Below are positions 817 through 15,117 of a stretch of 45,695 nucleotides of DNA, one piece after another; the first letter of the stretch is position 1, and every line of letters starts with the position of its first letter. Made by a program: the position numbers and the translations under genes. The notes beneath the pieces were generated by a model. The model was not told the DNA's origin. It worked only from the letters and a program-made list of their open reading frames with translations, and searched no databases. Source of the DNA: a phage. The stretch is taken from assembly GCA_032325415.1 (NCBI GenBank), contig GCA_032325415.1_4119.2. One strand, 5' to 3'.

Positions 817-1024
817 TTCAATTACCCCTTGAGGCTCCAGCAAAAAGTTGGTTAGTACTCCATCCTAAATCTCGATCCTAAAAATTTTGGAGTACCTATG
901 AAATAAAAGTTGGATCTTCGAAAGTTGAAATTTACGTTGGGACGTTTATGATTTGTGGGATATAATGATGTTTGTAGTCGGGTAGTTCTCAAGAATATCA
1001 GTACTGAAAGATGAAAGAAAGTTA

Positions 1025-1052
1025 TTGACTTTATGATTCAGTACTGTATAAT
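1025..1052 (+). promoter_or_regulatory. sigma70-like promoter with CAGTACTG in spacer; no ORF downstream (possible ncRNA)
   Basis: -35 TTGACT 1025-1030, 16-bp spacer, -10 TATAAT 1047-1052; downstream has hairpins CTGTC-GTGA-GACAG and CCACCAGC-ACAA-GCTGGTGG but only a 20-codon ORF. Confidence 0.45.
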
Positions 1053-1382
1053 GTTCTACATAGAGAGATGAGTTGCTGCGAACAATTCATTTACTCTACC
1101 TCCTGTCGTGAGACAGTACAGAAAAGATAGTTCCTCCTGTGGTGGTACATCTTTTTGAACCTCATATGAAAATCGTAATAACAGTACTGATATTAACAGA
1201 ATGGTATCAGTACTGATTTTAATCTAAAGCATTATGCCACCAGCACAAGCTGGTGGATTCCCTCTAACAGTATTCAGTACTACATGATGGTCTTCATCCT
1301 CCTAGGGTAACATAGTGAGGGCTATGATGGCAGTACTGAATACTCCCTTTCAAAAGATAGATCTATGGTATAGTACTGACGG

Positions 1383-1556
1383 ATTTTGGGCGTAGTTACC
1401 CTGGATGGATTTTGGACGTAGATATGTCTAGCCCTCCAGAAGTCTGGAAGTAAAGATGGCTATCCATCTAGACGGCTAAACGGCTAGATTTCTGGATGGC
1501 TGGATGGCTAGACGTTTGGACGGCTAAACGTCTGGATGTATGGATGGCTAAATCAA
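1383..1556. repeat. iteron-like cluster of short direct repeats (TGGATGGCT, GACGGCTAAACG, ATTTTGGGCGTAG)
   Basis: Repeated units seen directly: GACGGCTAAACG x2, TGGATGGCT x3-4, ATTTTGG(G/A)CGTAG x2; non-coding. Confidence 0.6.
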
Positions 1557-2170
1557 AATTTTTATTTTGTTTTTTCCAATAGTTCCCCTACCGCGTGGGG
1601 ATAGTTTCCCCGCAGTATCTGGTGTTAGATTTTTCTGAATCTGGAATCATTATCTTATAAACTGGGGGCAATGTCAACGGCCTGGACGGATATTTTTAAA
1701 AATTTTTTCAGTACTGAATTTTGGGCGTAACTATGCACCCGGTGGGCTTGAGTCTTTCTCGACTTGATGGAACTATTATACAGTACTGAAAAAATAAAGC
1801 AATACCCTGGAAGCAAAAAAGTTTTAATTAATTTGCTTGCTATCCTGGGCCGGACTATGGTACTATGTTTCAGTACTGAGAAAGTGCGTTTACCTGCTAG
1901 GGTGCGGGAGTGTATCCTTTTTTTATATCTTGAATTTTGGGCGTAATTCCGCACCCTCTGGGGTTTCCGCTTTCTCGCGTCTATGTAGTAATTATACGCT
2001 TTTTCAGGATCAAGTCAATACCTAAAAACAAAATAATTGAAAATAATTTAACGCGTTTAAACGGCCTGTAAAGCCCTGGAATGATTGGAATGGTGCAAAT
2101 GTATAGCTTATGTGTATTAATGCGTTAGAATGCGTCTGAGGCCGTTTTACGGGGTATAGGGATGATTTAG

Positions 2171-2268
2171 TGGATTGATTCAGTACTGAATAATAGTACT
2201 ACTATATAGAAAGATAGTTCCCCTGGATTGATTCAGTACTGAATAATAGTACTCCTATATAGAAAGAA
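2171..2268. repeat. tandem direct repeat, 2 copies of about 44 bp separated by about 10 bp
   Basis: TGGATTGATTCAGTACTGAATAATAGTACT(A/C)CTATATAGAAAGA at 2171-2214 and 2225-2268, one mismatch. Confidence 0.8.
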
Positions 2269-2298
2269 AACTATTTTAAAAGTATTTGTAGAAAGTAC

Positions 2299-2326
2299 TT
2301 GCACCGTACTGATAAAAGCGTATAAT
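2299..2326 (+). promoter_or_regulatory. sigma70-like promoter (cassette type)
   Basis: -35 TTGCAC, 16-bp spacer, -10 TATAAT 2321-2326; followed by GTTTTACATC and hairpin GCGGGA-ACACT-TCCCGC. Confidence 0.65.
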
Positions 2327-2381
2327 GTTTTACATCGAGAGCGGGAACACTTCCCGCTACACATTAAGAGAGATTAAAACG

Positions 2382-2744
2382 ATGGCGACTCAAATCAATA
2401 AAATCATGCTTAACCTGGTAAACTTCCGCGATGAGATGAAAGGTCTTCCGGCTGAAACGGTAAAAATTCACATTGCAGCTTATCGGGAACTTATTGCAAT
2501 GTTGCCGCTTAAGCGTGAACAATACGCCGCTACTTTGATGCTGGATTCAATGATCCATATAATGATCTCAAATGATTTGACGATGGTTTATCAGTATATG
2601 GGCGAAAATTTCGCGGTGTGTAGTAAGCCAGTACCAGGGATGGCAACAACTGAGGAATTGCACGGCTTAAACTTAAAACAAGATGCATGGGATAATATGC
2701 CTCGTTTCCTGGTATGGGCTGACAGTGGCAAAATTTACAAATAA
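2382..2744 (+). CDS. hypothetical protein (120 aa)
   Basis: ATG 2382 after promoter, 5' hairpin and SD; track ORF 2325 start lies inside the -10 element and is rejected. Confidence 0.65.
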   Translation: MATQINKIMLNLVNFRDEMKGLPAETVKIHIAAYRELIAMLPLKREQYAATLMLDSMIHIMISNDLTMVYQYMGENFAVCSKPVPGMATTEELHGLNLKQDAWDNMPRFLVWADSGKIYK

Positions 2745-2758
2745 GTTTAATAAAGTAC

Positions 2759-2786
2759 TTGCAAACTATGTTTAAAAGCGTATAAT
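2759..2786 (+). promoter_or_regulatory. sigma70-like promoter (cassette type)
   Basis: -35 TTGCAA 2759-2764, 16-bp spacer, -10 TATAAT 2781-2786; hairpin GGGGAA-TAG-TTCCCC 2800-2815. Confidence 0.65.
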
Positions 2787-2837
2787 GTTTTACATCAGGT
2801 GGGGAATAGTTCCCCACTATATAAGAGGATTAAAAAA

Positions 2838-3077
2838 ATGGCTAAATCAAAAATGTTCTTAGGTCACAAAAACAAAACTCATTGGAATGTAAGCCTTTGG
2901 ATTAATAACGATGAGGGATTGTATCGGTTGGCCCAGGACTTTATTAACGATAGCACTAATCGCAATGATGCGGCCCGTCATATGATGTTATTTTTAGAAC
3001 AGACTGGACAAGATAAAACACCGGACGGATTCAAATATAGCACTACTGCGATCCGTGCGGCGATGGTTGGAATGTAA
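2838..3077 (+). CDS. hypothetical protein (79 aa), paralog of 4875..5114
   Basis: SD AAGAGGA then ATG 2838; shares GHKNKTHWNVSLW...TPDGFKYSTTAIRAAMVGM with 4875..5114. Confidence 0.7.
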   Translation: MAKSKMFLGHKNKTHWNVSLWINNDEGLYRLAQDFINDSTNRNDAARHMMLFLEQTGQDKTPDGFKYSTTAIRAAMVGM

Positions 3078-3089
3078 TAGAATTTATTT

Positions 3090-3125
3090 AAAGTACTATC
3101 ATTTTTTGCGATAGTACTTTATAAT
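3090..3125 (+). promoter_or_regulatory. inverted repeat AAAGTACTATC-N9-GATAGTACTTT overlapping a -10 TATAAT (operator-type or terminator/promoter)
   Basis: Perfect 11-bp IR 3090-3100 / 3110-3120; TATAAT 3120-3125; -35 degenerate. Confidence 0.45.
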
Positions 3126-3162
3126 AGTGTTTTATTCATACACCAACGATAAGGGCAACAGC

Positions 3163-3429
3163 ATGAATATTAAGTATTTTGCGACGCGTGAACAAGCTCG
3201 GATCGCCGCACGCCAGGACGGGGCAACGTTTAAAGATATGGGAGCGGGATCGGCAAGTGGTGAACGTTGGGCCATTGTAAAGCGTAGTACGGCCAGATCA
3301 TTACAGTACTGGTTAGCGGCCTTAAAAAGTCCCGATAGTGTATCGCGTCGAGTGGTAGAAATAAAGCTCGACCGAAAGGGCAACCGCGTGACCGTGTACC
3401 GTACTAAAAAGATTGCAGTACTTGAATAA
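3163..3429 (+). CDS. hypothetical protein (88 aa), paralog of 15901..16296
   Basis: ATG 3163 downstream of TATAAT; shares KYFATREQARIAARQDGATFKDMG and DRKGNRVTVYRTKK with 15901..16296. Confidence 0.65.
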   Translation: MNIKYFATREQARIAARQDGATFKDMGAGSASGERWAIVKRSTARSLQYWLAALKSPDSVSRRVVEIKLDRKGNRVTVYRTKKIAVLE

Positions 3430-3436
3430 AAAGTAC

Positions 3437-3464
3437 TTGCAAACTATGTTTAAAGGCGTATAAT
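3437..3464 (+). promoter_or_regulatory. sigma70-like promoter (cassette type)
   Basis: -35 TTGCAA, 16-bp spacer, -10 TATAAT 3459-3464; hairpin GCGGGAA-CTC-TTCCCGC. Confidence 0.65.
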
Positions 3465-3516
3465 GTTTTACATCGAGAGCGGGAACTCTTCCCGCCTATA
3501 ACCTGGAGTAATAAAA

Positions 3517-3747
3517 ATGACTAATATGTATATGACTGAAGTTAAAACCGTAAAAGATACTACCACGAATAAAACTACTTACTTACAGCGGATCTGTGGT
3601 GTATGGCAACGTATCAGCAAATCAAAGTACTTTAAATTAACATCATATGCAAATCGTTCGGATTCATTCAGTACTGAAATAAAAGGTAATAAAGTACACC
3701 AATACGGCACTTATTATTATTACAGCCTGGACGCGATTGTAGTATAA
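3517..3747 (+). CDS. hypothetical protein (76 aa)
   Basis: SD GGAGT then ATG 3517; track ORF. Confidence 0.65.
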   Translation: MTNMYMTEVKTVKDTTTNKTTYLQRICGVWQRISKSKYFKLTSYANRSDSFSTEIKGNKVHQYGTYYYYSLDAIVV

Positions 3748-3777
3748 GAAGTTTACAAATCTTTACAATTGCCGGTA

Positions 3778-3806
3778 TTGACTTATTTTGTCAGTACTGG
3801 CATAAT
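3778..3806 (+). promoter_or_regulatory. sigma70-like promoter with no ORF downstream
   Basis: -35 TTGACT 3778-3783, 17-bp spacer, -10 CATAAT 3801-3806. Confidence 0.5.
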
Positions 3807-3960
3807 GTATTCATTGGCAGATAAGCCGTAGCCCATAGGGTGCGGGAGTGTATCTATAGCAAAATTAGTTTAGTATAGTTACAATTGTGCACCCGGTGGG
3901 TTAGCTGTTGTCATGGGGTATATTATGCCAGTACTTGATAATGCTGTCAATACTTTTTTA
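3807..3960 (+). other. candidate structured non-coding transcript carrying GCCCATAGGGTGC and its inverted partner GCACCCGGTGGG
   Basis: No ORF; the two motif copies are about 50 nt apart in opposite orientation and could pair; ends in T-run near 3950. Confidence 0.3.
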
Positions 3961-3989
3961 CTATTCAGTACTGAAAACTATTTTTAAAA

Positions 3990-4172
3990 AGTACTTGCAA
4001 ACTATGTTTAAAGGCGTATAATGTTTTACATCAGGACGGGGAACGAAATAAGTAACTCCCCGTTAAGTAGCCCAGGAGTAAGGCACACGAAAAACTCCCC
4101 TGATAAAATAGTTTGACAAATGTTTTTAAAAGCGTATAATACTTACATCAACTACTGAATGAGGGTTACAAA
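3990..4172 (+). repeat. dual-promoter leader module, copy 1 (near-identical to 14936-15117)
   Basis: Promoter A (-35 TTGCAA 3995-4000, -10 TATAAT 4017-4022), hairpin ACGGGGA...TCCCCGT, conserved AAGTAGCCCAGGAGTAAGGCACACGAAAAACTCCCCTGATAAAATAG, promoter B (-35 TTGACA 4113-4118, -10 TATAAT 4135-4140). Confidence 0.7.
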
Positions 4173-4784
4173 ATGAAAACTATCACTACTACTACTTATG
4201 TTATGGCTTTTTCTGAATTGAACGCAGAACAACAAACGTCAGCTATCGAACTGGTTCGGGAACGTGAAAAAAACTCAAACGACAATTATTTTTCTGAAAG
4301 TGAAATTGAATACTATAAAGAAACAGTACTACCGGAATATGGCATTAATGACGCTGAAATACAATTCAGTGGTTTTTGGTCCCAGGGTGACGGTGCATCA
4401 ATCAGTACTGACAGCGTGGACGCAGTGAAGTTTTTACGCAAGATTAAAGCGTTAACGAAATATCGTTCTATCCGTCACTTGTTGAATGAAGATGATTTGG
4501 CAATGAGTGTAGAACGTTCACACTCTCGCTACGCACACGAAAACACGGTAAGCGGGTACATTGAATCGGCTTACACTGATTTAACCGCAAAACAAGAAAC
4601 GTTAGTTAATGAGCTTGAGGAACTACTCACTGAAACTATTCGTGAATTGTCCCGCAAGTTGTACCGTGATTTAGAGAATGCATATGAGGATCAATTCACT
4701 ACTGAAAACATTACGGCACTGATTGAGGGTAACGAGTATCAATTCAATGTTATTGATGGCGTAGTAGAATCAATCGAATATTAA
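4173..4784 (+). CDS. hypothetical acidic protein (203 aa)
   Basis: SD GAGGG then ATG 4173; track ORF; contains FSGFWSQGDGASI motif; function not recognised with confidence. Confidence 0.7.
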   Translation: MKTITTTTYVMAFSELNAEQQTSAIELVREREKNSNDNYFSESEIEYYKETVLPEYGINDAEIQFSGFWSQGDGASISTDSVDAVKFLRKIKALTKYRSIRHLLNEDDLAMSVERSHSRYAHENTVSGYIESAYTDLTAKQETLVNELEELLTETIRELSRKLYRDLENAYEDQFTTENITALIEGNEYQFNVIDGVVESIEY

Positions 4785-4796
4785 TTTAAAAAGTAC

Positions 4797-4824
4797 TTGC
4801 AAACTAAGTTTAAAAGCGTATAAT
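4797..4824 (+). promoter_or_regulatory. sigma70-like promoter (cassette type)
   Basis: -35 TTGCAA, 16-bp spacer, -10 TATAAT 4819-4824; hairpin GCGGGGA-GTGGT-TCCCCGC. Confidence 0.65.
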
Positions 4825-4874
4825 ACTTTATATCGAGGCGGGGAGTGGTTCCCCGCTCAAACGAGGATTTAAAA

Positions 4875-5114
4875 ATGGCTAGTACTAAAACTTACAACGG
4901 TCACAAAAACAAAACTCATTGGAATGTAAGCCTTTGGGTTAATAACGGTGAGTCATTGTATCGGCTTGCTCAAAGTTGCATCGCACAAAGTAGAACTAAA
5001 GATATTGCTGCGGAATGTATGTACCGCAGATTAAAAGCCAACGGTACTACTACAACGCCGGACGGCTTTAAGTATAGCACTACTGCGATCCGTGCTGCAA
5101 TGGTTGGAATGTAA
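4875..5114 (+). CDS. hypothetical protein (79 aa), paralog of 2838..3077
   Basis: SD ACGAGGA then ATG 4875; paralogy with 2838..3077. Confidence 0.7.
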   Translation: MASTKTYNGHKNKTHWNVSLWVNNGESLYRLAQSCIAQSRTKDIAAECMYRRLKANGTTTTPDGFKYSTTAIRAAMVGM

Positions 5115-5133
5115 TATTCAGTACTGAGATAAT
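5104..5133 (+). promoter_or_regulatory. putative promoter with CAGTACTG in spacer and downstream hairpin
   Basis: -35 TTGGAA 5104-5109, 18-bp spacer, -10 GATAAT 5128-5133; hairpin GGCGGG-N8-CCCGCC 5134-5153. Confidence 0.45.
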
Positions 5134-5171
5134 GGCGGGTAATAGTTCCCGCCTTTACTGAGGGTTATCTA

Positions 5172-5432
5172 ATGAGTAAAGTAATTGCCTATACAGTACT
5201 AAGTAAATCATTATCTATCAGTCATTGCACCGATGGTTATTGGCTATTTGATGAAACGCGTGGCATGAATTTAGCTATGCGTGCAAAAACTGCTGAGGCG
5301 GCGTATATTCAAGCACTGGAATACTACCAGGAACGTTTAAAGGAAGTAGAAGAAGATTATAAAAGCCTCAAAGCGAAAGTAGATCATTTCGTCGGTCAAT
5401 TCATCGAGGAAGACGACGACAAACAATATTGA
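5172..5432 (+). CDS. hypothetical protein (86 aa)
   Basis: SD GAGGG then ATG 5172; track ORF. Confidence 0.65.
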   Translation: MSKVIAYTVLSKSLSISHCTDGYWLFDETRGMNLAMRAKTAEAAYIQALEYYQERLKEVEEDYKSLKAKVDHFVGQFIEEDDDKQY

Positions 5433-5440
5433 AAAAGTAC

Positions 5441-5468
5441 TTGCAATTAGTTTTCAGTACTGTATAAT
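5441..5468 (+). promoter_or_regulatory. sigma70-like promoter
   Basis: -35 TTGCAA 5441-5446, 16-bp spacer containing CAGTACTG, -10 TATAAT 5463-5468. Confidence 0.6.
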
Positions 5469-5506
5469 ACTTTATATCGAGTTAACACTATCCAGGAGCT
5501 TTAATC

Positions 5507-5689
5507 ATGACAACATTATCTGAGGTTATCCGCGAGCAAGCTGCGAAAGCTGGAATGACTGTTATTGATGTAGGGATCGAGGTCGAGATCTCCCCTAACG
5601 AATTGCAAGGCATACCCATGCCTACTAGCTGGGATCGTGCGGGGCGTATGATGCGTGATCACTGGACACTAAGCAATAAAGGCGTATAA
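5507..5689 (+). CDS. hypothetical protein (60 aa)
   Basis: SD CCAGGAG then ATG 5507; stop TAA 5687-5689 lies inside the next -10 hexamer. Confidence 0.6.
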   Translation: MTTLSEVIREQAAKAGMTVIDVGIEVEISPNELQGIPMPTSWDRAGRMMRDHWTLSNKGV

Positions 5690-5690
5690 T
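5663..5690 (+). promoter_or_regulatory. sigma70-like promoter embedded in 3' end of upstream gene
   Basis: -35 TGGACA 5663-5668, 16-bp spacer, -10 TATAAT 5685-5690; leader is a duplicate of the 5469-5506 leader. Confidence 0.55.
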
Positions 5691-5728
5691 ACTTTATATC
5701 GAGTTAACACTATCCAGGAGTAACGGCA

Positions 5729-5917
5729 ATGTTTAATATTTTAATCGTTAATGAACAAGGTAACGAGATTGAAACAATTCAATCCCCAATTAATCCGATT
5801 GGTGCTCATAGTCTGGTAACAGAAAAAGCGGTTTATGATTGTATAGAGTTTTCTGCGTCCTTTAAAAATAATCAGATTGTTGTGCACGTTGAAAATGATT
5901 TTATGGAATTTAATTAA
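5729..5917 (+). CDS. hypothetical protein (62 aa)
   Basis: SD CCAGGAGT then ATG 5729; track ORF. Confidence 0.6.
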   Translation: MFNILIVNEQGNEIETIQSPINPIGAHSLVTEKAVYDCIEFSASFKNNQIVVHVENDFMEFN

Positions 5918-5923
5918 AAGTAC

Positions 5924-5951
5924 TTGCAATTAGTTTTCAGTACTGTATAAT
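5924..5951 (+). promoter_or_regulatory. sigma70-like promoter (cassette type)
   Basis: -35 TTGCAA 5924-5929, 16-bp spacer, -10 TATAAT 5946-5951; hairpin AGGGAGAA-ATGG-TTCTCCCT. Confidence 0.65.
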
Positions 5952-6001
5952 GGTTTACATCAAAGGGAGAAATGGTTCTCCCTGGTAATGAGGAAAATAC
6001 A

Positions 6002-6223
6002 ATGGCTAATATCACTACTCTTTCCCAACTGGAAGCACTGGTTAAATCTATGCGGGAACATGCTGACAAAATCGGCGTACAAGATCCAGCCGTTTGCTTC
6101 TGCGACGAATTGAATGATGATACCCTGGTAATAGCAGAAGTCCAGGACGTTTCTAACTATTCCTCGCGTTACACTGGCGGCGTAGCAAATAAAGGCGACT
6201 TCTGTTTATACCTTACAAAATAA
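6002..6223 (+). CDS. hypothetical protein (73 aa)
   Basis: SD GAGGAAA then ATG 6002, in frame with track ORF 5972 whose start lies in the leader hairpin. Confidence 0.65.
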   Translation: MANITTLSQLEALVKSMREHADKIGVQDPAVCFCDELNDDTLVIAEVQDVSNYSSRYTGGVANKGDFCLYLTK

Positions 6224-6228
6224 CAACG

Positions 6229-6258
6229 CGGGGAGATAATAACTCCCCGTTACTTTTT
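6229..6258 (+). terminator. rho-independent terminator
   Basis: CGGGGAG-ATAATAA-CTCCCCG followed by TTACTTTTT. Confidence 0.7.
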
Positions 6259-6391
6259 CAGTACTGAATCATTTAATAGACGGATCTCGGCACCCGGTGG
6301 GTTAGTGACTGTTTCGTCTTGATGTAGTAATTATGCCAGTACTGGATGCACTTGTCAACAATTATTTTTCAAATACTTTTTATTAAAATAC

Positions 6392-6419
6392 TTGCAATTA
6401 GTTTTTAAACGCGTATAAT
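6392..6419 (+). promoter_or_regulatory. sigma70-like promoter (cassette type)
   Basis: -35 TTGCAA 6392-6397, 16-bp spacer, -10 TATAAT 6414-6419; hairpin GGGGA-GCGGT-TCCCC. Confidence 0.65.
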
Positions 6420-6466
6420 GTTTTGCATAGGGGGAGCGGTTCCCCTGGTAACTAAGGAATAAGAAA

Positions 6467-6703
6467 ATGGTCGAACAAATCAAATCAACGTCTGCGAATG
6501 TAACGGGAACGGTATCCCACTTTACTAGTGATGAATCGCGTGGTGTTCCTTATTGTGCTGTACATGTAAACACTGATGGCAACTACTGGTTTACGGTTTA
6601 CGGATCATATTCATTTGGTCGGCCAGGACATCAAAAAATCCTGGATAAAGTACAACCAACGGGTAAAAATATCACTGCCGAAATGTTTTATAAAAAATCA
6701 TAA
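6467..6703 (+). CDS. hypothetical protein (78 aa)
   Basis: SD TAAGGAAT then ATG 6467; track ORF. Confidence 0.65.
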   Translation: MVEQIKSTSANVTGTVSHFTSDESRGVPYCAVHVNTDGNYWFTVYGSYSFGRPGHQKILDKVQPTGKNITAEMFYKKS

Positions 6704-6708
6704 AGTAC

Positions 6709-6736
6709 TTGATAATAGTTTTTAGTACTGTATAAT
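6709..6736 (+). promoter_or_regulatory. sigma70-like promoter (cassette type)
   Basis: -35 TTGATA 6709-6714, 16-bp spacer, -10 TATAAT 6731-6736; hairpin GGGGGAGCGGTTCCCCC. Confidence 0.6.
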
Positions 6737-6787
6737 ATTTTACATCGCAAGGGGGAGCGGTTCCCCCTGGTAACTAAGGATAATCAA

Positions 6788-7087
6788 ATGAAAATTGCAA
6801 TCATCGCCCTGGCTTTATCTGTTTCCTCTTTCGCTGTTAATGCGTCGTTAGATGTAAGTAGTGAAAAATTCATTCAGTGCACTGTTGCAATGACCGATGA
6901 AAGTACTGGCGAGATTGTATTAAAGGATTTAGAGATCCAGCCGGAAGCATTTAAAAACGGCCCGTTCCATGAAGAAGACGAAAAAGGTAGCACGACAATT
7001 TATTACGATGCAAGTACTAAACGCGGTTCGGTCACTGTAATGGATACGGAGAAAGTAACTCATACTGGCGTTATTAATTGCCGTTGA
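6788..7087 (+). CDS. predicted secreted/periplasmic protein (99 aa) with N-terminal signal peptide
   Basis: N-terminus MKIAIIALALSVSSFAVNA has a basic residue, hydrophobic core and AxA-like cleavage context; SD TAAGGAT. Confidence 0.65.
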   Translation: MKIAIIALALSVSSFAVNASLDVSSEKFIQCTVAMTDESTGEIVLKDLEIQPEAFKNGPFHEEDEKGSTTIYYDASTKRGSVTVMDTEKVTHTGVINCR

Positions 7088-7108
7088 TAGATACTACGGG
7101 GTAACATC

Positions 7109-7339
7109 ATGACTAAGCGAATTGTTTTACTTAACGAAAGCAGTACTACACAACTACTTAACGCCGTACATTATGATATTGAAACGAGTGTTAATCTTAT
7201 CAGTACTGTAGTACTATTGGACACTGGAAAGGTCGCCAATGAAAAAGCTATTGCAGGTGTACTAACTGATCTTGAGCCTGGTAGCAGTACACCCATAACG
7301 TTAAATGATAAAGTGTTTAATGTTTTAATTACTGAATAA
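7109..7339 (+). CDS. hypothetical protein (76 aa)
   Basis: Track ORF 22 nt after previous stop; likely co-transcribed; followed by terminator. Confidence 0.55.
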   Translation: MTKRIVLLNESSTTQLLNAVHYDIETSVNLISTVVLLDTGKVANEKAIAGVLTDLEPGSSTPITLNDKVFNVLITE

Positions 7340-7345
7340 GTACAT

Positions 7346-7368
7346 AGCCCACCTGGTGGGCTTTTTTG
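7346..7368 (+). terminator. rho-independent terminator
   Basis: AGCCCACC-TGGT-GGGCT hairpin followed by TTTTTTGTTTTTG. Confidence 0.75.
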
Positions 7369-7421
7369 TTTTTGTAGTATCGTAGTACTGAGATACTTTG
7401 AAAATAGTTTTAAGAAAGTAG

Positions 7422-7449
7422 TTGACATTACCGCAGAAAAGCGTAGAAT
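7422..7449 (+). promoter_or_regulatory. sigma70-like promoter; leader is a diverged variant of the dual-promoter module
   Basis: -35 TTGACA 7422-7427, 16-bp spacer, -10 TAGAAT 7444-7449; hairpin ACGGGGAG...; second putative promoter TTGATA 7523-7528 / TAAACT. Confidence 0.55.
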
Positions 7450-7572
7450 GTATTACATCAAGACGGGGAGCACTAAGTAGACCGCCAGTAAGTCGAACGA
7501 AAAACTGGACACGTCGAGAAAACTTTGATACACTAATAAACGTAAACTAAACTTTAATTGAGGATTTATAAA

Positions 7573-8055
7573 ATGGCTAATGTAAAATCATTCATCAAAG
7601 CACTGGTAGCAAATGAAACTAACGTCGCGGCTGAGATCCTGGCTGAACTGGATAACGATACCATGAAAGCGGTACGCAATAATTTTAACATCGCTTACAG
7701 TACTGCGAAAGAACTACAAGCAAATAAAGCGGCAGAAATTGAAGCGGCAAAGGCGGCCCGTGAAGCAGAACTACAAGCAACAATCGAAAGTATTCAGGCG
7801 GCAGTAGTTGGATTGGATCTGGAAGTAGTTACAGAGATGGCACAAAAAGCCCTGGCGGTTAAGTATGGGGAAGACAAGCCAGAAGTAAAAGCCAAAAAAT
7901 GGATTCAGGAACGCGTAGCGGTAGTACTGGACAACGGGGAAGAATATCTGATTCCGGTGCGTGGTAACTGCATTGCGGTAGTACTGGACGCGATTAACGC
8001 CAGCGGTATGACTCGCGAGGAATGGATCGAATCTCATCGCAAAGTTGAAGCATAA
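7573..8055 (+). CDS. hypothetical Ala/Glu-rich protein (160 aa)
   Basis: SD TGAGGAT then ATG 7573, in frame with track ORF 7558. Confidence 0.65.
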   Translation: MANVKSFIKALVANETNVAAEILAELDNDTMKAVRNNFNIAYSTAKELQANKAAEIEAAKAAREAELQATIESIQAAVVGLDLEVVTEMAQKALAVKYGEDKPEVKAKKWIQERVAVVLDNGEEYLIPVRGNCIAVVLDAINASGMTREEWIESHRKVEA

Positions 8056-8076
8056 CAATTAAAGTACTGAATCACT

Positions 8077-8104
8077 AGCCCACCTTAAACGGTGGGCTTT
8101 TTTG
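8077..8104 (+). terminator. rho-independent terminator
   Basis: GCCCACC-TTAAAC-GGTGGGC followed by TTTTTTGTG. Confidence 0.8.
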
Positions 8105-8257
8105 TGTTTATCGTTTACCAGGCCACCAGCACCGCCTAGAAACGATTCTAACGCATTAAACTGATTATCTGATGCATTGCCCTAGCTGGTGGCGTTAAGG
8201 CTGTAAGAACGCGATTGAGAGCGTTTAAAGTATTTTGCAAAAAGTAATAAAAAGTAC

Positions 8258-8285
8258 TTGCACGATTAAGAGATTAGCGTATAAT
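8258..8285 (+). promoter_or_regulatory. sigma70-like promoter (cassette type)
   Basis: -35 TTGCAC 8258-8263, 16-bp spacer, -10 TATAAT 8280-8285; GTTTTACATC then GC hairpin. Confidence 0.65.
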
Positions 8286-8340
8286 GTTTTACATCGAGAG
8301 GGGGAAACGGTTCTCCTTCCAAATCAAAGGAATCAAAACA

Positions 8341-8568
8341 ATGGCTATTATCATTACTCGCGTATCTGGTACTACTGGCAACGAACAAGTAGTTGCAGTC
8401 ATTACCAATAAGGAAGGTGCGGAATTGCAAAATGCAATGAATACCTGGGCCGTTAATGAGTTCGGTCAGTGGGCTAGTGTAGCATACATTGAAACCTATC
8501 AAGTGCCGTCGATTAGTTTAACTGATTTGGGCGTTGAGCGTATCCTTTGCCTGGATGAATTAAATTAA
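8341..8568 (+). CDS. hypothetical protein (75 aa)
   Basis: SD AAAGGAAT then ATG 8341; track ORF 8284 start lies inside the promoter. Confidence 0.65.
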   Translation: MAIIITRVSGTTGNEQVVAVITNKEGAELQNAMNTWAVNEFGQWASVAYIETYQVPSISLTDLGVERILCLDELN

Positions 8569-8576
8569 AAAAGTAC

Positions 8577-8604
8577 TTGCAAAGTAAATCGAATAAAGTA
8601 TAAT
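8577..8604 (+). promoter_or_regulatory. sigma70-like promoter (cassette type)
   Basis: -35 TTGCAA 8577-8582, 16-bp spacer, -10 TATAAT 8599-8604; hairpin GGGGAGAA-ATGG-TTCTCCCC. Confidence 0.65.
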
Positions 8605-8653
8605 ACATTACATCAAGGGGAGAAATGGTTCTCCCCACTACAAGGAAACTAAA

Positions 8654-8797
8654 ATGAAAACTTGTCAATGTGGTCAGAAATCTATTACGGGTTTAAAGCG
8701 GGGCGTTGCTCTTTGCCAGTACCATTATAATTTACAAGTATGGGGTAAAGAATGGGCCGATCAAGTGGAAGCAATCAAGAAAGCAAAAAGTAAGTAA
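8654..8797 (+). CDS. small Cys-rich protein (47 aa), not in ORF track
   Basis: Complete cassette (promoter, hairpin, SD AAGGAAA, ATG 8654) with ORF MKTCQCGQKSITGLKRGVALCQYHYNLQVWGKEWADQVEAIKKAKSK; possible metal-binding CxC...C..H. Confidence 0.55.
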   Translation: MKTCQCGQKSITGLKRGVALCQYHYNLQVWGKEWADQVEAIKKAKSK

Positions 8798-8809
8798 AAA
8801 TATTATCAC

Positions 8810-8845
8810 AGTACTATTGACATAGTTTGATAGTACTGGCATAAT
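8810..8845 (+). promoter_or_regulatory. promoter with operator-like inverted repeat AGTACTAT-N12-ATAGTACT
   Basis: AGTACTAT 8810-8817, -35 TTGACA 8817-8822, ATAGTACT 8830-8837, -10 CATAAT 8840-8845. Confidence 0.6.
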
Positions 8846-8878
8846 AGATTTTATCAAGACAACTAAGAGGAAATTAAA

Positions 8879-9223
8879 ATGGCTAACATCAACACTATCG
8901 CAGCACAAAATATCAACCTGTCTTCTGTTGAAGTTGTACATATTGCCGCTCGGCGTTGGTTCCAGGCTTCATATGGTAACACTTATTTCTCTTTAAGTGT
9001 AGACGTAGAAATTGATGGTAATTTTATTGAAGTAGTAAACGTGCCGTTCCAATATGGATACGGGGATCACTTTGACACTGTAGCAATGGAAGAATTTAGC
9101 AAGGTTATTAATATGGAAGATAAAGAGTTTTTACGCGGTTCTTATCTTTCCCGTTTTTGCCGTGACAATAATATCACTGTTTACAGTTCGGTAACTGATG
9201 TTAAACGCAAAAAAGATCTTTAA
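8879..9223 (+). CDS. hypothetical protein (114 aa), distant paralog of 15482..15805
   Basis: SD TAAGAGG then ATG 8879; shares RW..GNTY and C-terminal DVKRKKD with 15482..15805. Confidence 0.65.
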   Translation: MANINTIAAQNINLSSVEVVHIAARRWFQASYGNTYFSLSVDVEIDGNFIEVVNVPFQYGYGDHFDTVAMEEFSKVINMEDKEFLRGSYLSRFCRDNNITVYSSVTDVKRKKDL

Positions 9224-9303
9224 TTAGCTTTACTTTATGCAGATACTTTGATATAGTGTCTGCATAGGGGAAAGAAATTAAATTAACTTAAGAGGATAGT
9301 ATA

Positions 9304-9573
9304 ATGAAAAATATCAGTACTTTAATCGATGCAGGTACTCATGTTCGTCGGTCTATGGTTGCAACCAGTACTACAAAACAAGTAGCGAGCGGTTATCTTG
9401 TATTTGTGCACGATGGAAAACTCCTGGAACGTTCAATCAATTTTGATGTTAAAAACAATTGCCGTTTTATTATCTTTAAGCGTGAGCAATATAAAATTGA
9501 TTTGCCAGCGAAGCCCATTAGCGGGGCGTATAACGTCTATTCATTGTTTGAGCGTCAACCATACACCTATTAA
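9304..9573 (+). CDS. hypothetical protein (89 aa)
   Basis: SD TAAGAGGA then ATG 9304; preceded by hairpin ATGCAGA-N-TCTGCAT 9236-9266. Confidence 0.6.
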   Translation: MKNISTLIDAGTHVRRSMVATSTTKQVASGYLVFVHDGKLLERSINFDVKNNCRFIIFKREQYKIDLPAKPISGAYNVYSLFERQPYTY

Positions 9574-9624
9574 TCAAAACATCGTTAGCGGTCGATTTAG
9601 GCCGCTTATATTGGGGATTATACC

Positions 9625-9897
9625 ATGAACGTTAATCAAGTACTGAATGAAGTTGAAAGCATCATTAAACCAATGAAACGCATTGATGCTATGTTAACAC
9701 CGGAAGAATGCCGCCTTTATGAGCGTTACAGCGTCGAACAAGTCCAGGCAATGGCTATGGCTACCCCAGCCGTTAAACCGCCTGAGAATGCGTTACAGGA
9801 CGTTACAGGGGATTATATCATTAATCCAGTACTAGGGAAGATGGCTGCAATCACCGAAGATCAACAAGACTACTTAAGCCAGTACTTAAAAGGTTAA
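9625..9897 (+). CDS. hypothetical protein (90 aa)
   Basis: Track ORF; SD GGGGA upstream. Confidence 0.55.
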   Translation: MNVNQVLNEVESIIKPMKRIDAMLTPEECRLYERYSVEQVQAMAMATPAVKPPENALQDVTGDYIINPVLGKMAAITEDQQDYLSQYLKG

Positions 9898-9902
9898 TTA
9901 AT

Positions 9903-10112
9903 ATGCTTACTGTACAGGATAAGATCGACATCTTAAAGGTTAATATGTATGTGATTGATGCCGTACCTGGTAAAGTATTTGCATACGATGATAGTACTGT
10001 AAGCGATTTCTACTATAGCCAGGCCGTGGGGGATCTTTCTGTACAGTCGGTTATTGAAAATGTAGTTAATGCAGCGTATGAGCATTTACTTTCAAATAGT
10101 ACTTGCAATTAG
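9903..10112 (+). CDS. hypothetical protein (69 aa)
   Basis: Track ORF 5 nt after previous stop; its stop TAG 10110-10112 lies immediately after the next -35. Confidence 0.55.
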   Translation: MLTVQDKIDILKVNMYVIDAVPGKVFAYDDSTVSDFYYSQAVGDLSVQSVIENVVNAAYEHLLSNSTCN

Positions 10113-10130
10113 TTTTTAAACGCGTATAAT
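10103..10130 (+). promoter_or_regulatory. sigma70-like promoter (cassette type)
   Basis: -35 TTGCAA 10103-10108, 16-bp spacer, -10 TATAAT 10125-10130; hairpin GCGGGAATAGTTCCCCC. Confidence 0.65.
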
Positions 10131-10182
10131 GTTTTACATCGAGAGCGGGAATAGTTCCCCCCTCACTTTTAAGGAATATGAA

Positions 10183-10329
10183 ATGAAAGCATCAAAAAAG
10201 AGTACTAACAAGAAAGCACGTTCAACCTTAGATGGGGTATTCCCTTTACGTTTCGTTGATGAAGTGGTTTCCTACCCGCCTGGCCTTACTCCTGAGATGG
10301 TAGAAAGTTTGCGTAAATCTAAAAAATAG
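10183..10329 (+). CDS. small basic protein (48 aa)
   Basis: SD AAGGAAT then ATG 10183, in frame with track ORF 10129 whose start is in the promoter. Confidence 0.55.
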   Translation: MKASKKSTNKKARSTLDGVFPLRFVDEVVSYPPGLTPEMVESLRKSKK

Positions 10330-10332
10330 TAC

Positions 10333-10360
10333 TTGCAATTAGTTTTTAGTACTGTATAAT
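10333..10360 (+). promoter_or_regulatory. sigma70-like promoter (cassette type)
   Basis: -35 TTGCAA 10333-10338, 16-bp spacer with CAGTACTG, -10 TATAAT 10355-10360; hairpin GGGGAGAA-ATGA-TTCTCCCC. Confidence 0.65.
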
Positions 10361-10410
10361 GTTTTACATGAAGGGGAGAAATGATTCTCCCCAATAACAG
10401 GAGAAACAAA

Positions 10411-10563
10411 ATGAAACAATACAACGCTCGGTTTGATGTTACTATCGGTAACGGCAAAGGTCAATTCTCTTTCAGTACTCGCCGCAGTTATACAGAAAAC
10501 TTCCTGCGTAATTGTGCACTGACCGCCGCTCAAATTAAACATTACTTTCAGGCTAAAAAATGA
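10411..10563 (+). CDS. small protein (50 aa)
   Basis: SD CAGGAGA then ATG 10411, in frame with track ORF 10381. Confidence 0.55.
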   Translation: MKQYNARFDVTIGNGKGQFSFSTRRSYTENFLRNCALTAAQIKHYFQAKK

Positions 10564-10649
10564 GATCATTAGCTTATTACAGTTCGGCCCTGGTCGGTGC
10601 ATTGATCGCGGCGTTGTTAGTAACCTATCTATTCTTTATGGTGATTTAA
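10560..10649 (+). CDS. small hydrophobic membrane peptide (29 aa)
   Basis: ATG 10560 overlaps upstream stop (ATGA); MRSLAYYSSALVGALIAALLVTYLFFMVI is a single predicted transmembrane helix; not in track. Confidence 0.45.
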   Translation: MRSLAYYSSALVGALIAALLVTYLFFMVI

Positions 10650-10784
10650 ATGAATCCTAACGGTATAGTTTACAGTACTCCTAAAACGAAAGCAGATAAA
10701 GCTAAAGCACGTAAAGCGAAAGTAAAGGAGTACATCAAGCAAGGCATGACACGAAAGGCCGCAGTACTTAAAGCTAAAAAATAA
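10650..10784 (+). CDS. small Lys-rich basic protein (44 aa)
   Basis: ATG 10650 directly follows the previous stop (TAAATG); MNPNGIVYSTPKTKADKAKARKAKVKEYIKQGMTRKAAVLKAKK; not in track. Confidence 0.4.
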   Translation: MNPNGIVYSTPKTKADKAKARKAKVKEYIKQGMTRKAAVLKAKK

Positions 10785-10787
10785 ATG

Positions 10788-10882
10788 AAAAAAGTGGTTG
10801 ACTTCGGTCAGCCATTTTGCTATTATATATTCATTGAGAGATAGCTCACTAGCCCACAGGGTGCAGGAGTGTATCTATTATA
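10788..10882 (+). repeat. R module copy 1: terminator-like hairpin with embedded promoter plus conserved core AGCCCACAGGGTGCAGGAGTGTATCT
   Basis: Hairpin GTGGTTGAC-TTCG-GTCAGCCAT (wobble-compensated), -35 TTGACT 10798-10803, -10 TATTAT 10821-10826; homologous to 14813, 17527, 19497. Confidence 0.65.
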
Positions 10883-10920
10883 TGAGTATTGAGTACTGAA
10901 AACTATTTTTAAAAAAGTAC

Positions 10921-10948
10921 TTGCAAACTATCTCAATAAGCGTATAAT
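10921..10948 (+). promoter_or_regulatory. sigma70-like promoter (cassette type)
   Basis: -35 TTGCAA 10921-10926, 16-bp spacer, -10 TATAAT 10943-10948; hairpin AGGGGAAAC-G-GTTTCCCCT. Confidence 0.65.
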
Positions 10949-10999
10949 GTTTTACATCGAAAGGGGAAACGGTTTCCCCTGGTAATAAGGAAACAAATC

Positions 11000-11341
11000 A
11001 TGACTATCTCAATTGCTCAATCTAACTTTGAAAATGAAATCATCGCCCAGGCACTGCGTTTAAATGATGGTCGGGCCGAAATTAATTACGGTTTCAATTC
11101 AGGCGGTTGTGAAAAATATCAGTACTTTGTAACGGCTGATGGCGGTGTCCTGGGTATCAATACAGTTATTGTAAACATCCAAAAAATTAATTTCAATGAT
11201 CCAGAGGATAGCCAGTTTTACATCACTGGCGTAGACGTGAACTATGAGGATGACTCACTAACTGATGATCACACTGGTGAGCGGTTAGAAAGTGCATACG
11301 GTGAAGATGATTATCAGTCCGGTCCAGAAGATTTCGAATAA
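11000..11341 (+). CDS. hypothetical acidic protein (113 aa)
   Basis: SD TAAGGAAA then ATG 11000; track ORF. Confidence 0.65.
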   Translation: MTISIAQSNFENEIIAQALRLNDGRAEINYGFNSGGCEKYQYFVTADGGVLGINTVIVNIQKINFNDPEDSQFYITGVDVNYEDDSLTDDHTGERLESAYGEDDYQSGPEDFE

Positions 11342-11355
11342 TATAAAAAAATAGT

Positions 11356-11383
11356 TTGACAATAGATTATAGTACTGTATAAT
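11356..11383 (+). promoter_or_regulatory. sigma70-like promoter (cassette type)
   Basis: -35 TTGACA 11356-11361, 16-bp spacer with AGTACTG, -10 TATAAT 11378-11383; hairpin GGGGAGAA-TAG-TTCTCCCC. Confidence 0.65.
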
Positions 11384-11436
11384 AGTTTACATCAAGGGGA
11401 GAATAGTTCTCCCCACTAACAGAGAGAGAAAACAAA

Positions 11437-11649
11437 ATGGCTAATATCCGGTCGAAATTAAAAAATGCAAAACAAGTTTTATTTTCAGATCATGAATACT
11501 TTAATAAAGATATTACAGGAGTTACAAGTATCAAGGAAGTAAAAGAAAAAACCGGCGTTTTGTGTGATGTGCGATTAGTTGGAACATTTGGGAATAACGT
11601 GCTATATCGCTGCGGTGATTACAATTTTACACTGACTATCATTAACTAA
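11437..11649 (+). CDS. hypothetical protein (70 aa)
   Basis: ATG 11437 after AGAGAGAGAAAACAAA leader; track ORF. Confidence 0.6.
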   Translation: MANIRSKLKNAKQVLFSDHEYFNKDITGVTSIKEVKEKTGVLCDVRLVGTFGNNVLYRCGDYNFTLTIIN

Positions 11650-11661
11650 AAATATTATCAC

Positions 11662-11697
11662 AGTACTATTGACATAGTTTGATAGTACTGACATAAT
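11662..11697 (+). promoter_or_regulatory. promoter with operator-like inverted repeat AGTACTAT-N12-ATAGTACT
   Basis: AGTACTAT 11662-11669, -35 TTGACA 11669-11674, ATAGTACT 11682-11689, -10 CATAAT 11692-11697. Confidence 0.6.
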
Positions 11698-11731
11698 AAC
11701 TTTTATCAACTACACTACTAAGGAATTAAAA

Positions 11732-11911
11732 ATGGCTATCATCGCAAAAACTGAAATCATCGGCCTGGATTCTATCATCATGACGTTTGAAGATCAAAAA
11801 GGTATGTATGTGGTTTCCTATGGTGATTATGTTCGGGAGTATGAAACGGTAGACGAAGCCTTTGAAAGTTACATTCGCCAGGTGAATAAAGCATACGACG
11901 ACTACCGCTAA
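11732..11911 (+). CDS. small protein (59 aa), not in ORF track
   Basis: SD TAAGGAAT then ATG 11732; ORF MAIIAKTEIIGLDSIIMTFEDQKGMYVVSYGDYVREYETVDEAFESYIRQVNKAYDDYR; the minus-strand track ORF 11778..11978 is rejected. Confidence 0.55.
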   Translation: MAIIAKTEIIGLDSIIMTFEDQKGMYVVSYGDYVREYETVDEAFESYIRQVNKAYDDYR

Positions 11912-11922
11912 AATATATTACC

Positions 11923-11966
11923 AGTACTATTAAATCTATTGACAATGTTTGATAGTACTGTATAAT
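11923..11966 (+). promoter_or_regulatory. promoter with operator-like inverted repeat AGTACTAT-N21-ATAGTACT
   Basis: AGTACTAT 11923-11930, -35 TTGACA 11939-11944, ATAGTACT 11952-11959, -10 TATAAT 11961-11966. Confidence 0.6.
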
Positions 11967-12010
11967 AAGTTTTATCAACAGTAGTTAACTTAACCTAAGA
12001 GAGAAACAAA

Positions 12011-12154
12011 ATGATCGCACTGGATTCATTCATCGACGCAGTACTGGCAAAAACTGGCGAGGATCTGACCGCAGAACAATACGCGATGATCGAGCAATGC
12101 CAGCAAGACGGTAAATCGGTGAAAGATACTGTTAAGATTATCCGCAAGATGTAA
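12011..12154 (+). CDS. small protein (47 aa), not in ORF track
   Basis: SD TAAGAGAGA then ATG 12011; ORF MIALDSFIDAVLAKTGEDLTAEQYAMIEQCQQDGKSVKDTVKIIRKM; followed by terminator. Confidence 0.5.
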   Translation: MIALDSFIDAVLAKTGEDLTAEQYAMIEQCQQDGKSVKDTVKIIRKM

Positions 12155-12160
12155 GATTAT

Positions 12161-12190: not shown

Positions 12191-12259
12191 TTCATTACCC
12201 TATACAATGCCAGTACTACACCGTTTATCTCGTTAGAATGCGTTACAGGACGTTTGACA

Positions 12260-14935: not shown

Positions 14936-15117
14936 AAGTACTTGCATTGTACTTAGAATCAAGTATAATGTTTTACATCAGGACGGGGAACGAAACAAGT
15001 AACCCCGTTAAGTAGTCCAGGAGTAAGACATAAGAAAACCTCCCCTGATAAAATAGTTTGACAATAGAAAGTAAAAGAGTATAATACTTACATCAACCAC
15101 TGATAAGGAAACATAAA
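14936..15117 (+). repeat. dual-promoter leader module, copy 2 (near-identical to 3990-4172)
   Basis: Promoter A (-35 TTGCAT 14942-14947, -10 TATAAT 14964-14969), hairpin ACGGGGAA...CCCCGT, conserved AAGTAGTCCAGGAGTAAGACATAAGAAAACCTCCCCTGATAAAATAG, promoter B (-35 TTGACA 15058-15063, -10 TATAAT 15080-15085). Confidence 0.7.

Follow-up and report, generated by a model that had tools for sequence, protein, structure and literature searches.

A predicted pseudoknot element in the early leader RNA of Asteriusvirus jumbo coliphages and T7-like phages

The early region of phage T7 contains a cluster of three promoters used by E. coli RNA polymerase, A1, A2 and A3 (at 498, 626 and 750). This cluster is the closest described relative of the element analyzed here, which lies between two tandem sigma70 promoters at positions 3990-4172 of a stretch of phage DNA of 45,695 nucleotides (NCBI GenBank assembly GCA_032325415.1, contig GCA_032325415.1_4119.2; the whole stretch is called the window below). 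The RNA of the element is predicted to form a compact pseudoknot. The window comes from a jumbo coliphage of the Asteriusvirus group and represents its terminal-repeat early region; it matches PBECO4, 121Q and G17 of this group, with WPEC5 as the top match (99%). Other described systems are similar in part. The putL and putR sites of phage HK022 act through nascent RNA that binds the zinc-binding domain of RNA polymerase and leads to antitermination and to less pausing. The put RNAs, of which each genome has two, are ~70 nt long and lie just 3' of early promoters; they form an RNA triple helix, and no phage protein is needed (PMC9378689). The PeSL cassettes of T4-like phages consist of repeated sigma70 early promoters, each with an A/T-rich stretch upstream and a GGGG...CCCC stem-loop next to it. 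They border on small ORFans and serve as recombination points for modular cassette shuffling (PMC2839356, PMC4122927). The leader of gene 32 in T4 and T2 carries a pseudoknot that is a translational operator bound by gp32 (PMC3014915).

The locus was compared with each of these systems. In the case of T7, the tandem strong sigma70 promoters are ~120 nt apart at both loci (118 nt here, 128 nt in T7), the -10 box is followed by 7 nt and an ATC start, and a G-rich 5' hairpin precedes the same core, UAAGUAG-NC-..-UAAG-N'C-..GAAAAA-.., placed just before the next -35 box. T7 has one copy, whereas the window phage has three, in a 20-kb terminal repeat. The T7 element also differs by an extra CCGG hairpin, by the lack of the helix P0, and by CCUG:CAGG instead of GGAGU:ACUCC. 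The likeness to put is one of position and size only: a structured RNA of ~70 nt just 3' of early sigma70 promoters, in more than one copy per genome and with no apparent phage protein partner. The put RNA is made of two stem-loops and not of a pseudoknot, and it has a base triple helix where the window element has a predicted A-rich third loop (PMC9378689). The nearest described phage RNA fold is that of the gene 32 leader, a compact H-type pseudoknot at the 5' end of a phage leader with an A+U-rich stretch after it and a start codon ~70 nt away (75 nt here, 67 nt in T4) (PMC3014915). The T4 element precedes the gene of its binding protein, whereas at least eight unrelated small genes follow the element described here, and its A+U-rich stretch is a complete promoter. 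The topology P1a, L1, P2a, L2, P1b, A-rich L3, P2b and a Shine-Dalgarno (SD)-like strand in the second stem are common to the element and preQ1-I-type riboswitches. In contrast to these riboswitches, the element has no Rfam match (E up to 10) and no expression platform, terminator or adjacent start codon, and T7-like phages have a CCUG strand at this place. The PeSL combination of a strong promoter, A/T-rich upstream sequence and GGGG...CCCC stem-loop, repeated many times among small ORFans, occurs in window 1000-20200, and a PeSL-like cassette exchange would fit the mosaic flanks of the element. Here, however, the stem-loop is 3' of the promoter, in the 5' untranslated region (5'UTR), and has no T run, whereas that of PeSLs is described as a terminator/attenuator for upstream transcription; PeSLs also lack a pseudoknot segment and belong to another phage group.

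The features of the first copy are as follows.

3995..4022, + strand: promoter A, TTGCAA-16-TATAAT (10/12), with an A/T-rich stretch 5' of it; member of a promoter family of roughly 20 copies
4030..4035, + strand: predicted transcription start at A4030 and 5' strand of helix P0 (AUCAGG)
4036..4063, + strand: hairpin P1, ACGGGGA (4036-4042) with UCCCCGU (4057-4063), variable 14-nt loop
4064..4098, + strand: pseudoknot core; stem S1, 4067-4068 and 4070-4072 with 4082-4086; stem S2, GGAGU (4075-4079) with ACUCC (4094-4098)
4073-4074, 4080-4081 and 4087-4093, + strand: loops L1, L2 (AA) and L3 (ACGAAAA) of the core
4099..4104, + strand: 3' strand of P0 (CCUGAU), contiguous with the S2b strand and followed by AAAA
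4113..4140, + strand: promoter B, TTGACA-16-TATAAT (12/12), predicted start at ~4147; belongs to the downstream gene

The start at A4030 was deduced from the geometry of -10, 7 nt and ATC, which is the same as at the annotated T7 A1 start at 498. The minimum-free-energy fold of the RNA beginning at this nucleotide is a three-way junction of P0, P1 and the helix GGAGU/ACUCC (4075-4079 with 4094-4098). The S2 stem belongs to the minimum-free-energy fold both in the window copies and in the T7 A1 leader; the z-scores of these folds are -2.9 and -2.5 for two window copies and -3.5 for the T7 A1 leader. The S1 stem, a short hairpin G(N)C...G(N')C around AGGAGU, was supplied by the RNAalifold consensus. 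Together, S1 and S2 would form a compact H-type pseudoknot of 35 nt with a 2-nt L1, a 2-nt L2 and an A-rich 7-nt L3, in the order S1 G-U-(A)-G-N-C, L1 (2 nt), S2a GGAGU, L2 AA, S1b G-N'-C-A-Y, L3 ACGAAAA and S2b ACUCC. The P1 hairpin, for which the first 40 nt of copies 1 and 2 give predicted energies of -13.1 and -11.9 kcal/mol, is similar to the ordinary GGGG-loop-CCCC 5' hairpins of the neighboring cassettes, and variation within the element is greatest in its loop and 3' arm. The unpaired residues UAAGUAG, UAAG and GAAAA show almost no change, which suggests specific recognition. We have high confidence in the identity and the structure of the pseudoknot element.

The original prediction described a duplicated module with a diverged variant at 7422-7572, and this description was correct. 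A profile search revealed exactly three copies of the element in the window, at 4030 (E = 2e-24), 14977 (5e-22) and 7457 (1e-7). In a global alignment, 3990-4172 and 14936-15117 were 81% identical over ~183 nt. The identity was 67% in promoter A, 91% in 4023-4108, 78% in promoter B and 76% in the short 5'UTR; the spacers of promoter A differ, and the coding starts are unrelated. The other two copies contain the following features.

14942..14969, + strand: promoter A of copy 2, TTGCAT-16-TATAAT; member of the 'AAAAAGTACTTGCA...TATAATGTTTTACATC' family
14977..15049, + strand: element copy 2; P0, 14977-14982 with 15044-15049; P1, 14983-14988 with 15003-15008
15009-15043, + strand: core of copy 2; S1, 15012-15017 with 15027-15031; S2, 15020-15024 with 15039-15043
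15058..15085, + strand: promoter B of copy 2, perfect TTGACA-16-TATAAT (12/12)
7422..7449, + strand: promoter of the diverged third copy, TTGACA-16-TAGAAT
7457..7508, + strand: diverged third copy; 5' AUCAAGACGGGGAG without a local hairpin, core at 7474-7508
7477-7482 and 7492-7496, + strand: S1 of the third copy, middle pair A:U; 7485-7489 with 7504-7508, S2 of the third copy (CCAGU with ACUGG)

Tandem promoters had been predicted as well and are present at both full modules: promoter B scores 12/12 in each, promoter A scores 10/12 in copy 1, and that of copy 2 fell below the level of the promoter scanner, its -35 box TTGCAT being only 3/6. In the third copy, both C tracts are missing, but promoter, G-rich 5' arm and middle segment are retained. 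Both of its stems are kept by compensatory changes (the middle A:U pair in S1, CCAGU:ACUGG in S2), and the two G:C pairs of S2 are turned to C:G in comparison with copies 1 and 2. The cores at 4064-4098, 15009-15043 and 7474-7508 align with each other without gaps and with T7 551-587 with one 1-nt indel. All three follow the core consensus UAAGUAG-N-C-(2 nt)-S2a-(0-1 nt)-UAAG-N'-C-(4 nt)-GAAAA(A)-S2b.

Base-pair conservation was assessed in two sets of cores. In the ungapped 37-nt alignment of 10 distinct cores, 96% of the cells were paired and compensatory changes were found in 4/10 pairs, a count that was matched by 0/500 shuffles. After inclusion of the T7-like phages (22 distinct cores), 96.8% of the cells were paired as compared with 76.9% after shuffling, and the covariation score was 0.50 versus 0.17 (0/500 shuffles reached 0.50). 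With slid 3' partners as a control, 25-54% of the cells were paired. Pairs changed on both sides were again four of ten. The compensatory versions of S2 are GGUGU:ACACC, seen in one EJP2 copy, CCAGU:ACUGG, CCUGU:ACAGG and CUUG:CAAG; the T7-like phages contribute CCUG:CAGG, CUUG:CAAG, CCUGU:ACAGG and a U:G wobble in S2, and A:U and U:A in S1. The G:U pairs are frequent (15/22 cores at one pair) and, consequently, the fold is possible in + strand RNA only. These compensatory changes and strand-specific G:U pairs point to RNA, and the view that the segment between the promoters is non-coding and acts at the RNA level stands. The AGGAGT at 4074-4079 is followed by no start codon, and a leader peptide is unsupported, as the original prediction had it. 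A minus-strand open reading frame (ORF) of 20 codons starting with GTG was rejected as a peptide gene, since it is broken by 1-2-nt indels between the copies.

The same evidence bears on a DNA-level role, in which the segment would be a UP-like activating sequence or a protein-binding site for promoter B or T7 A2. The T7-like core does lie 1-2 nt from the -35 box of A2, and its A tract is at the position of a UP element. We consider this role highly unlikely, as the distance to the -35 box spans 1 to 41 nt, and the compensatory changes and strand-specific G:U pairs indicate RNA.

Among 10 orthologous Asteriusvirus genomes, 7/63 sites of the element outside the P1 loop vary, as do 78/176 third-codon and 21/176 second-codon positions of the adjacent gene. 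No variable site was found in the -35 to -10 stretch of promoter A of copy 1. These data have to be set against the possibility that the element is a functionless relic, a 5'UTR (hairpin and SD) left over from a cassette that lost its ORF and carried along by recombination at flanking promoter motifs. A hairpin followed by AGGAG looks like an ordinary cassette, and the gene at 18601 has the 'AGTCCAGGAG' of the element in its 5'UTR as well; the PeSLs of T4-like phages are a documented case of cassettes being shuffled at promoter motifs (PMC2839356). However, the element is far less variable than synonymous sites, four pairs have compensatory changes across deeply separated phage groups, S2a is CCUG, and no SD, in T7-like phages, and in distant T7-like relatives the element is what stays alignable of the A1-A2 region. 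A relic is therefore very improbable. The SD likeness of AGGAGU is itself incidental, because T7-like phages have CCUG there. Binding of CsrA to two CAGGA motifs was rejected because EJP2_7778, the third copy and every T7-like phage have lost GGA while retaining the pairing, and action as an SD or ribosome decoy was rejected on this ground too.

The 90-nt segment between the promoters was found in 45 phage records with 89-100% identity. They comprise 38 Asteriusvirus records, four of Vequintavirinae (A73, W70, A7_1 and A5-4) and three of Justusliebigvirus (muut, outra and EmilieFrey). Across these phages, promoter A is of three types, promoter B of at least four types, and at least eight unrelated genes follow; the core is retained. 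Because at least eight unrelated genes follow it, the element is not a gene-specific regulator. A degenerate core pattern with free paired positions was then used to search IMG/VR, and it yielded T7-like contigs and a second jumbo phage. The latter, the 366-kb contig IMGVR_UViG_3300012988_000001, contains a further variant at 1100-1330 with S2 CCAG:CUGG and the next promoter ~40 nt 3' of the element, which suggests that the family extends to more jumbo phages than the 45 GenBank records show. The first narrow DNA patterns had found only Asteriusvirus in IMG/VR and metagenomes, and a pattern of the 3' half gave only chance matches in coding DNA. Matches in genome contigs of Carboxylicivirga, Nitrososphaeraceae and Alteromonadaceae and in a 148-kb contig (L060) look like chance and were discarded.

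In the T7 reference genome (NC_001604), the core is at bp 551-585, between the annotated A1 (start at 498) and A2 (start at 626), and it ends two bases 5' of the -35 box of A2. A blastn search with T7 498-625 gave 488 phage records, whose hosts include Escherichia, Klebsiella, Salmonella, Yersinia, Enterobacter, Citrobacter, Serratia, Pantoea and Hafnia. In distant relatives, the alignable part is reduced to the core and the preceding hairpin. The sequence comparison thus identifies the window core as a homolog of the T7 A1-A2 segment, beyond mere resemblance. Hundreds of T7-like phages have the core, and so do a few phages of Vequintavirinae and Justusliebigvirus. In 62/62 distinct contexts, a sigma70 promoter precedes the core and another one follows it, with 24-61 nt from the -10 box to the core and 1-41 nt from S2b to the next promoter. 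The column-wise identity was 0.96 in the core, a figure inflated by the selection of loci with a core pattern, 0.67 in the A1 promoter and 0.79 in the A2 promoter. A search of Rfam 15, at the gathering score and at E up to 10, with the window, the element and T7 380-1000 gave nothing relevant. No description of the T7 A1-A2 segment as a structured RNA was found in the searchable literature, older subscription literature being outside its scope, and a full-text search with the literal T7 sequence returned only papers that print the segment as T7 sequence or as a template. We regard the element as a new RNA family of a known general kind, the structured phage leader or pseudoknot, with an unexpectedly wide distribution that includes T7; an earlier description is possible. 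On the 3' side of A3, T7 also contains GCTCTTTAACAA at ~813-825 (434-446 of T7 380-1000), which we take to be a match to the rrn-type boxA antitermination box.

According to the original prediction, the layout resembles that of an attenuator or riboregulator: the GGGGA stretch could pair either with the proximal UCCCC arm or with a distal CUCCCC tract. The two sequence parts of this proposal are present, the hairpin ending in TCCCCGT and the second CTCCCC tract (4095-4100 and 15040-15045), and GGGGA is complementary to both C tracts. One extra G in phage muut is accompanied by one extra distal C, which would favor the switch; this argument is weakened by phage E9.1, which has the extra G and no extra C. 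The switch itself did not hold. In the thermodynamic ensemble computed in silico, GGGG pairs with the proximal arm with a probability of ~1.0 and with the distal tract with a probability of ~0.000, so that two mutually exclusive pairings of comparable stability are not predicted. The distal tract is not a rival for GGGGA, as it is split between S2b, paired with AGGAGU, and the 3' strand of P0. It covaries with AGGAGU and not with GGGGA, and when the proximal arm was blocked in silico, it still kept its other partners, the probability of its pairing with GGGG being practically zero in this case too. Both C tracts are missing from the third copy and from all T7-like copies, in which the pseudoknot is kept. 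There is also no terminator-like site at 4030-4172 or 14977-15117, and the ribosome-binding site of the downstream gene is ~60 nt away, past a complete promoter. Neither a terminator or sequestered ribosome-binding site after the element nor a populated alternative fold is predicted, Rfam has no matching aptamer, and we consider the attenuator the least credible of the explanations, with hardly any chance of being correct. A long-range pairing of GUAGCCC with the ribosome-binding region of the gene at 4173 was rejected too, because it occurs in copy 1 only and is hence not general.

As a whole, the data are best explained by an autonomous leader RNA module acting on host machinery, an explanation to which we give a little less than an even chance. 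Promoter A of copy 1, recognized by host sigma70 polymerase, would drive a non-coding RNA of ~75 nt that starts at about A4030. The RNA would be made in the first seconds of infection and may act on a conserved host component, independently of any phage protein; in T7, the genome end with the early promoters enters the cell first. In the most likely version of this explanation, which we propose tentatively by analogy, the nascent pseudoknot would act co-transcriptionally on the RNA polymerase that transcribed it, as HK022 put RNA does, and polymerases from promoter A would be helped past the strong promoter or promoters directly 3'. Without the element RNA, retained sigma70 would recognize the -10 box of the next promoter and cause a pause; this strong -10 box would be a natural sigma70-dependent pause site. 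A sigma-dependent pause has been suggested to aid the folding of put RNA (PMC9378689). The autonomous module implies no translational control of one gene, the element being independent of the downstream gene and of any co-transferred protein.

Several observations weigh against this explanation or lower the weight of its evidence. Among the Asteriusvirus sequences, the variants of S1 are linked in a haplotype block, which indicates gene conversion between the copies, so there are few independent compensatory events in this set and the statistical weight comes mostly from the between-group comparison. The T7-like loci were found with a pattern that fixes core residues, which inflates the apparent conservation and has no effect on the paired positions left as N. 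The P0 and P1 helices are limited to the Asteriusvirus-type element and have little covariation support. The variable distance of 1-41 nt from the core to the next promoter argues against a mechanism with exact spacing. The T7 A2-A3 interval, which we read as a diverged duplicate, lacks an intact pseudoknot; evidently, polymerases do not need one to cross tandem promoters. E. coli RNA polymerase from A1 still stops at the T7 early terminator, and a general antiterminator is thus unlikely. Finally, a promoter after the element is the default in a cassette array and may have no functional meaning.

The independence from the downstream gene and the movement between unrelated phage groups without an accompanying protein would also be expected of a trans-acting early non-coding RNA, a decoy or anti-defense molecule that neutralizes a conserved enterobacterial protein before any phage protein is made. 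Candidates for such a target are a nuclease, S1, a defense sensor and a type III toxin, and the RNA would be released by processing, by RNase III at R0.3 in T7 and at the A/U-rich site after P0 in the jumbo phage. The near-consensus promoters at the leading genome end and the three copies in the jumbo phage are in line with this role, and P0 would join the two RNA ends, a trait of many stable small RNAs. The sporadic occurrence in Vequintavirinae (4 records) and Justusliebigvirus (3 records) resembles that of many accessory counter-defense genes. On the other hand, no terminator or defined 3' end is predicted, and the T7-like copies lack P0. The element has no blastn similarity in 5,426 E. coli genomes and is thus not a sequence mimic of a host RNA. 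We rate the decoy as somewhat unlikely.

The predicted pairing of the 5' nucleotide and the lack of a terminator between the element and the downstream gene are compatible with a 5'-terminal stabilizer as well, and simple 5' hairpins occupy the same place in the neighboring cassettes. According to this alternative, P0, P1 and the pseudoknot block the 5'-end-dependent attack or scanning by RNase E, and the read-through mRNA from promoter A outlives the short mRNA from promoter B, which gives two isoforms with different half-lives. In T7, however, RNase III cuts the A1 leader off the 0.3 mRNA, and the leader cannot stabilize that message. A plain hairpin would suffice for protection, yet UAAGUAG, UAAG and GAAAA are near-invariant, and P0 is absent from T7-like copies. 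This makes the stabilizer an improbable explanation. A further-reaching possibility, which we hold to be less likely than not, is that the first host-polymerase transcript of T7-like podoviruses, Asteriusvirus jumbo myoviruses and some Vequintavirinae and Justusliebigvirus phages carries a portable, protein-independent RNA device. It would be either a put-like nascent RNA that reprograms E. coli RNA polymerase on its way across tandem promoters or a decoy that disarms a host factor or a defense system ahead of all phage proteins.

The surroundings of the three copies contain the following features.

4173..4784, + strand: gene after copy 1, 203 aa, phrog_5162
15118-15393, + strand: gene after copy 2, 91 aa, phrog_14947
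7573-8055, + strand: gene after the third copy, 160 aa, phrog_27871
7346..7368, + strand: intrinsic terminator, AGCCCACC/GGTGGGCT and a T run, just 5' of the promoter of the third copy; the equivalent UE-S1 site is annotated as a terminator
7525..7553, + strand: weak promoter-like site, TTGATA-17-TAAACT (9/12), between the third copy and the next gene

The arrangement gives good support to the view that each module is made of two early cassettes, independent of each other and in head-to-tail order: promoter A with a non-coding RNA of ~75 nt, and then promoter B of the next gene. Element-bearing promoters were found directly after terminators in three cases (window 7346, window 14816 and phage A73). 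The three downstream genes belong to PHROGs families of unknown function (phrog_5162, phrog_14947 and phrog_27871). At the family cut-off, their proteins had no match in Pfam, and the matches in PADLOC were all weak (E above 0.04). The PDB search covered the 203-aa protein alone and gave no sequence match. A toxin/antitoxin-like pairing of the RNA with the downstream proteins is unsupported by these PHROGs, Pfam, PADLOC and PDB results.

The element is part of an array of ~40 near-consensus sigma70 promoters of two sequence flavors at window ~1000-20200, among which the 'AAAAAGTACTTGCA...TATAATGTTTTACATC' family has roughly 20 members. After most promoters at 1000-20200 there is a small ORF with its SD, preceded by a GGGG(A)-loop-(U)CCCC 5' hairpin with a predicted energy of -9 to -16 kcal/mol. 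The direct terminal repeat of Asteriusvirus Sharanji is reported to be ~20.7 kb long (PMC11895373), and the extent of the promoter array fits it. A literature search found no transcriptomes of Asteriusvirus or Vequintavirinae, and no tRNA or tmRNA was found in the window by ARAGORN.

Several other features were observed in the array. The composite 'AAAAAGGGATTGACTCCGGTCAGTCCCTTTGCTATTATATA' occurs at window 10790-10830, 14816-14851, 17540-17575 and 19500-19536 as a terminator-like hairpin with a T run, and the same sequence can also be read as a promoter (TTGACT-17-TATTAT). The near-invariant motif AGCCCAYAGGGTGC-N6-TGTATCTAT is present in 7 copies of ~29 nt each (1891, 3829, 10850, 12516, 14870, 17597 and 19555), ~20-25 nt 3' of a promoter -10 box. 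RNAalifold gave no convincing fold for these copies, and the upstream 'AGCCCAYAGGGTGC' motif was rejected as a part of the element RNA for want of a convincing consensus fold. In the non-coding region 3748-3994, a + strand promoter (3778-3806) opposes a - strand promoter-like site (3950-3922, TTGACA-17-CATAAT, 11/12), and the two could give a convergent sense/antisense RNA pair over one copy of AGCCCAYAGGGTGC-N6-TGTATCTAT. The non-coding region 12540-12650, after the promoter at 12462, contains five clustered TGATCAA / TTGATCAA sequences (GATC-containing palindromes), which could be a protein-binding array or an origin-like region. The strong promoter at 1025-1052 is followed by more than 1.2 kb (1053-2290) without a convincing + strand ORF, and the first 40 nt of its predicted transcript form a long hairpin (-13.9 kcal/mol). 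Paralogous gene arrays were seen as repeat families at window 21800-27400 and 36400-44000, with conserved blocks of 35-220 nt at a spacing of 215-480 nt or ~900-1400 nt.

In terms of annotation, the "dual promoters" of the jumbo-phage terminal repeats can be read as two cassettes, the first for a non-coding RNA and the second for an ordinary gene. In vitro transcription commonly uses the T7 A1 promoter and its leader as templates, and a folded domain in some of the RNAs could affect the interpretation of such experiments. The segment at T7 bp 551-585 is an easily mutated target for studying how the first host-polymerase transcripts are handled. If the proposal is true, the well-studied T7 carries an unrecognized functional RNA between A1 and A2. 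If the fold is real and functional, the element would be a new family of structured RNA that operates at the earliest step of infection and is common to otherwise dissimilar phage families.

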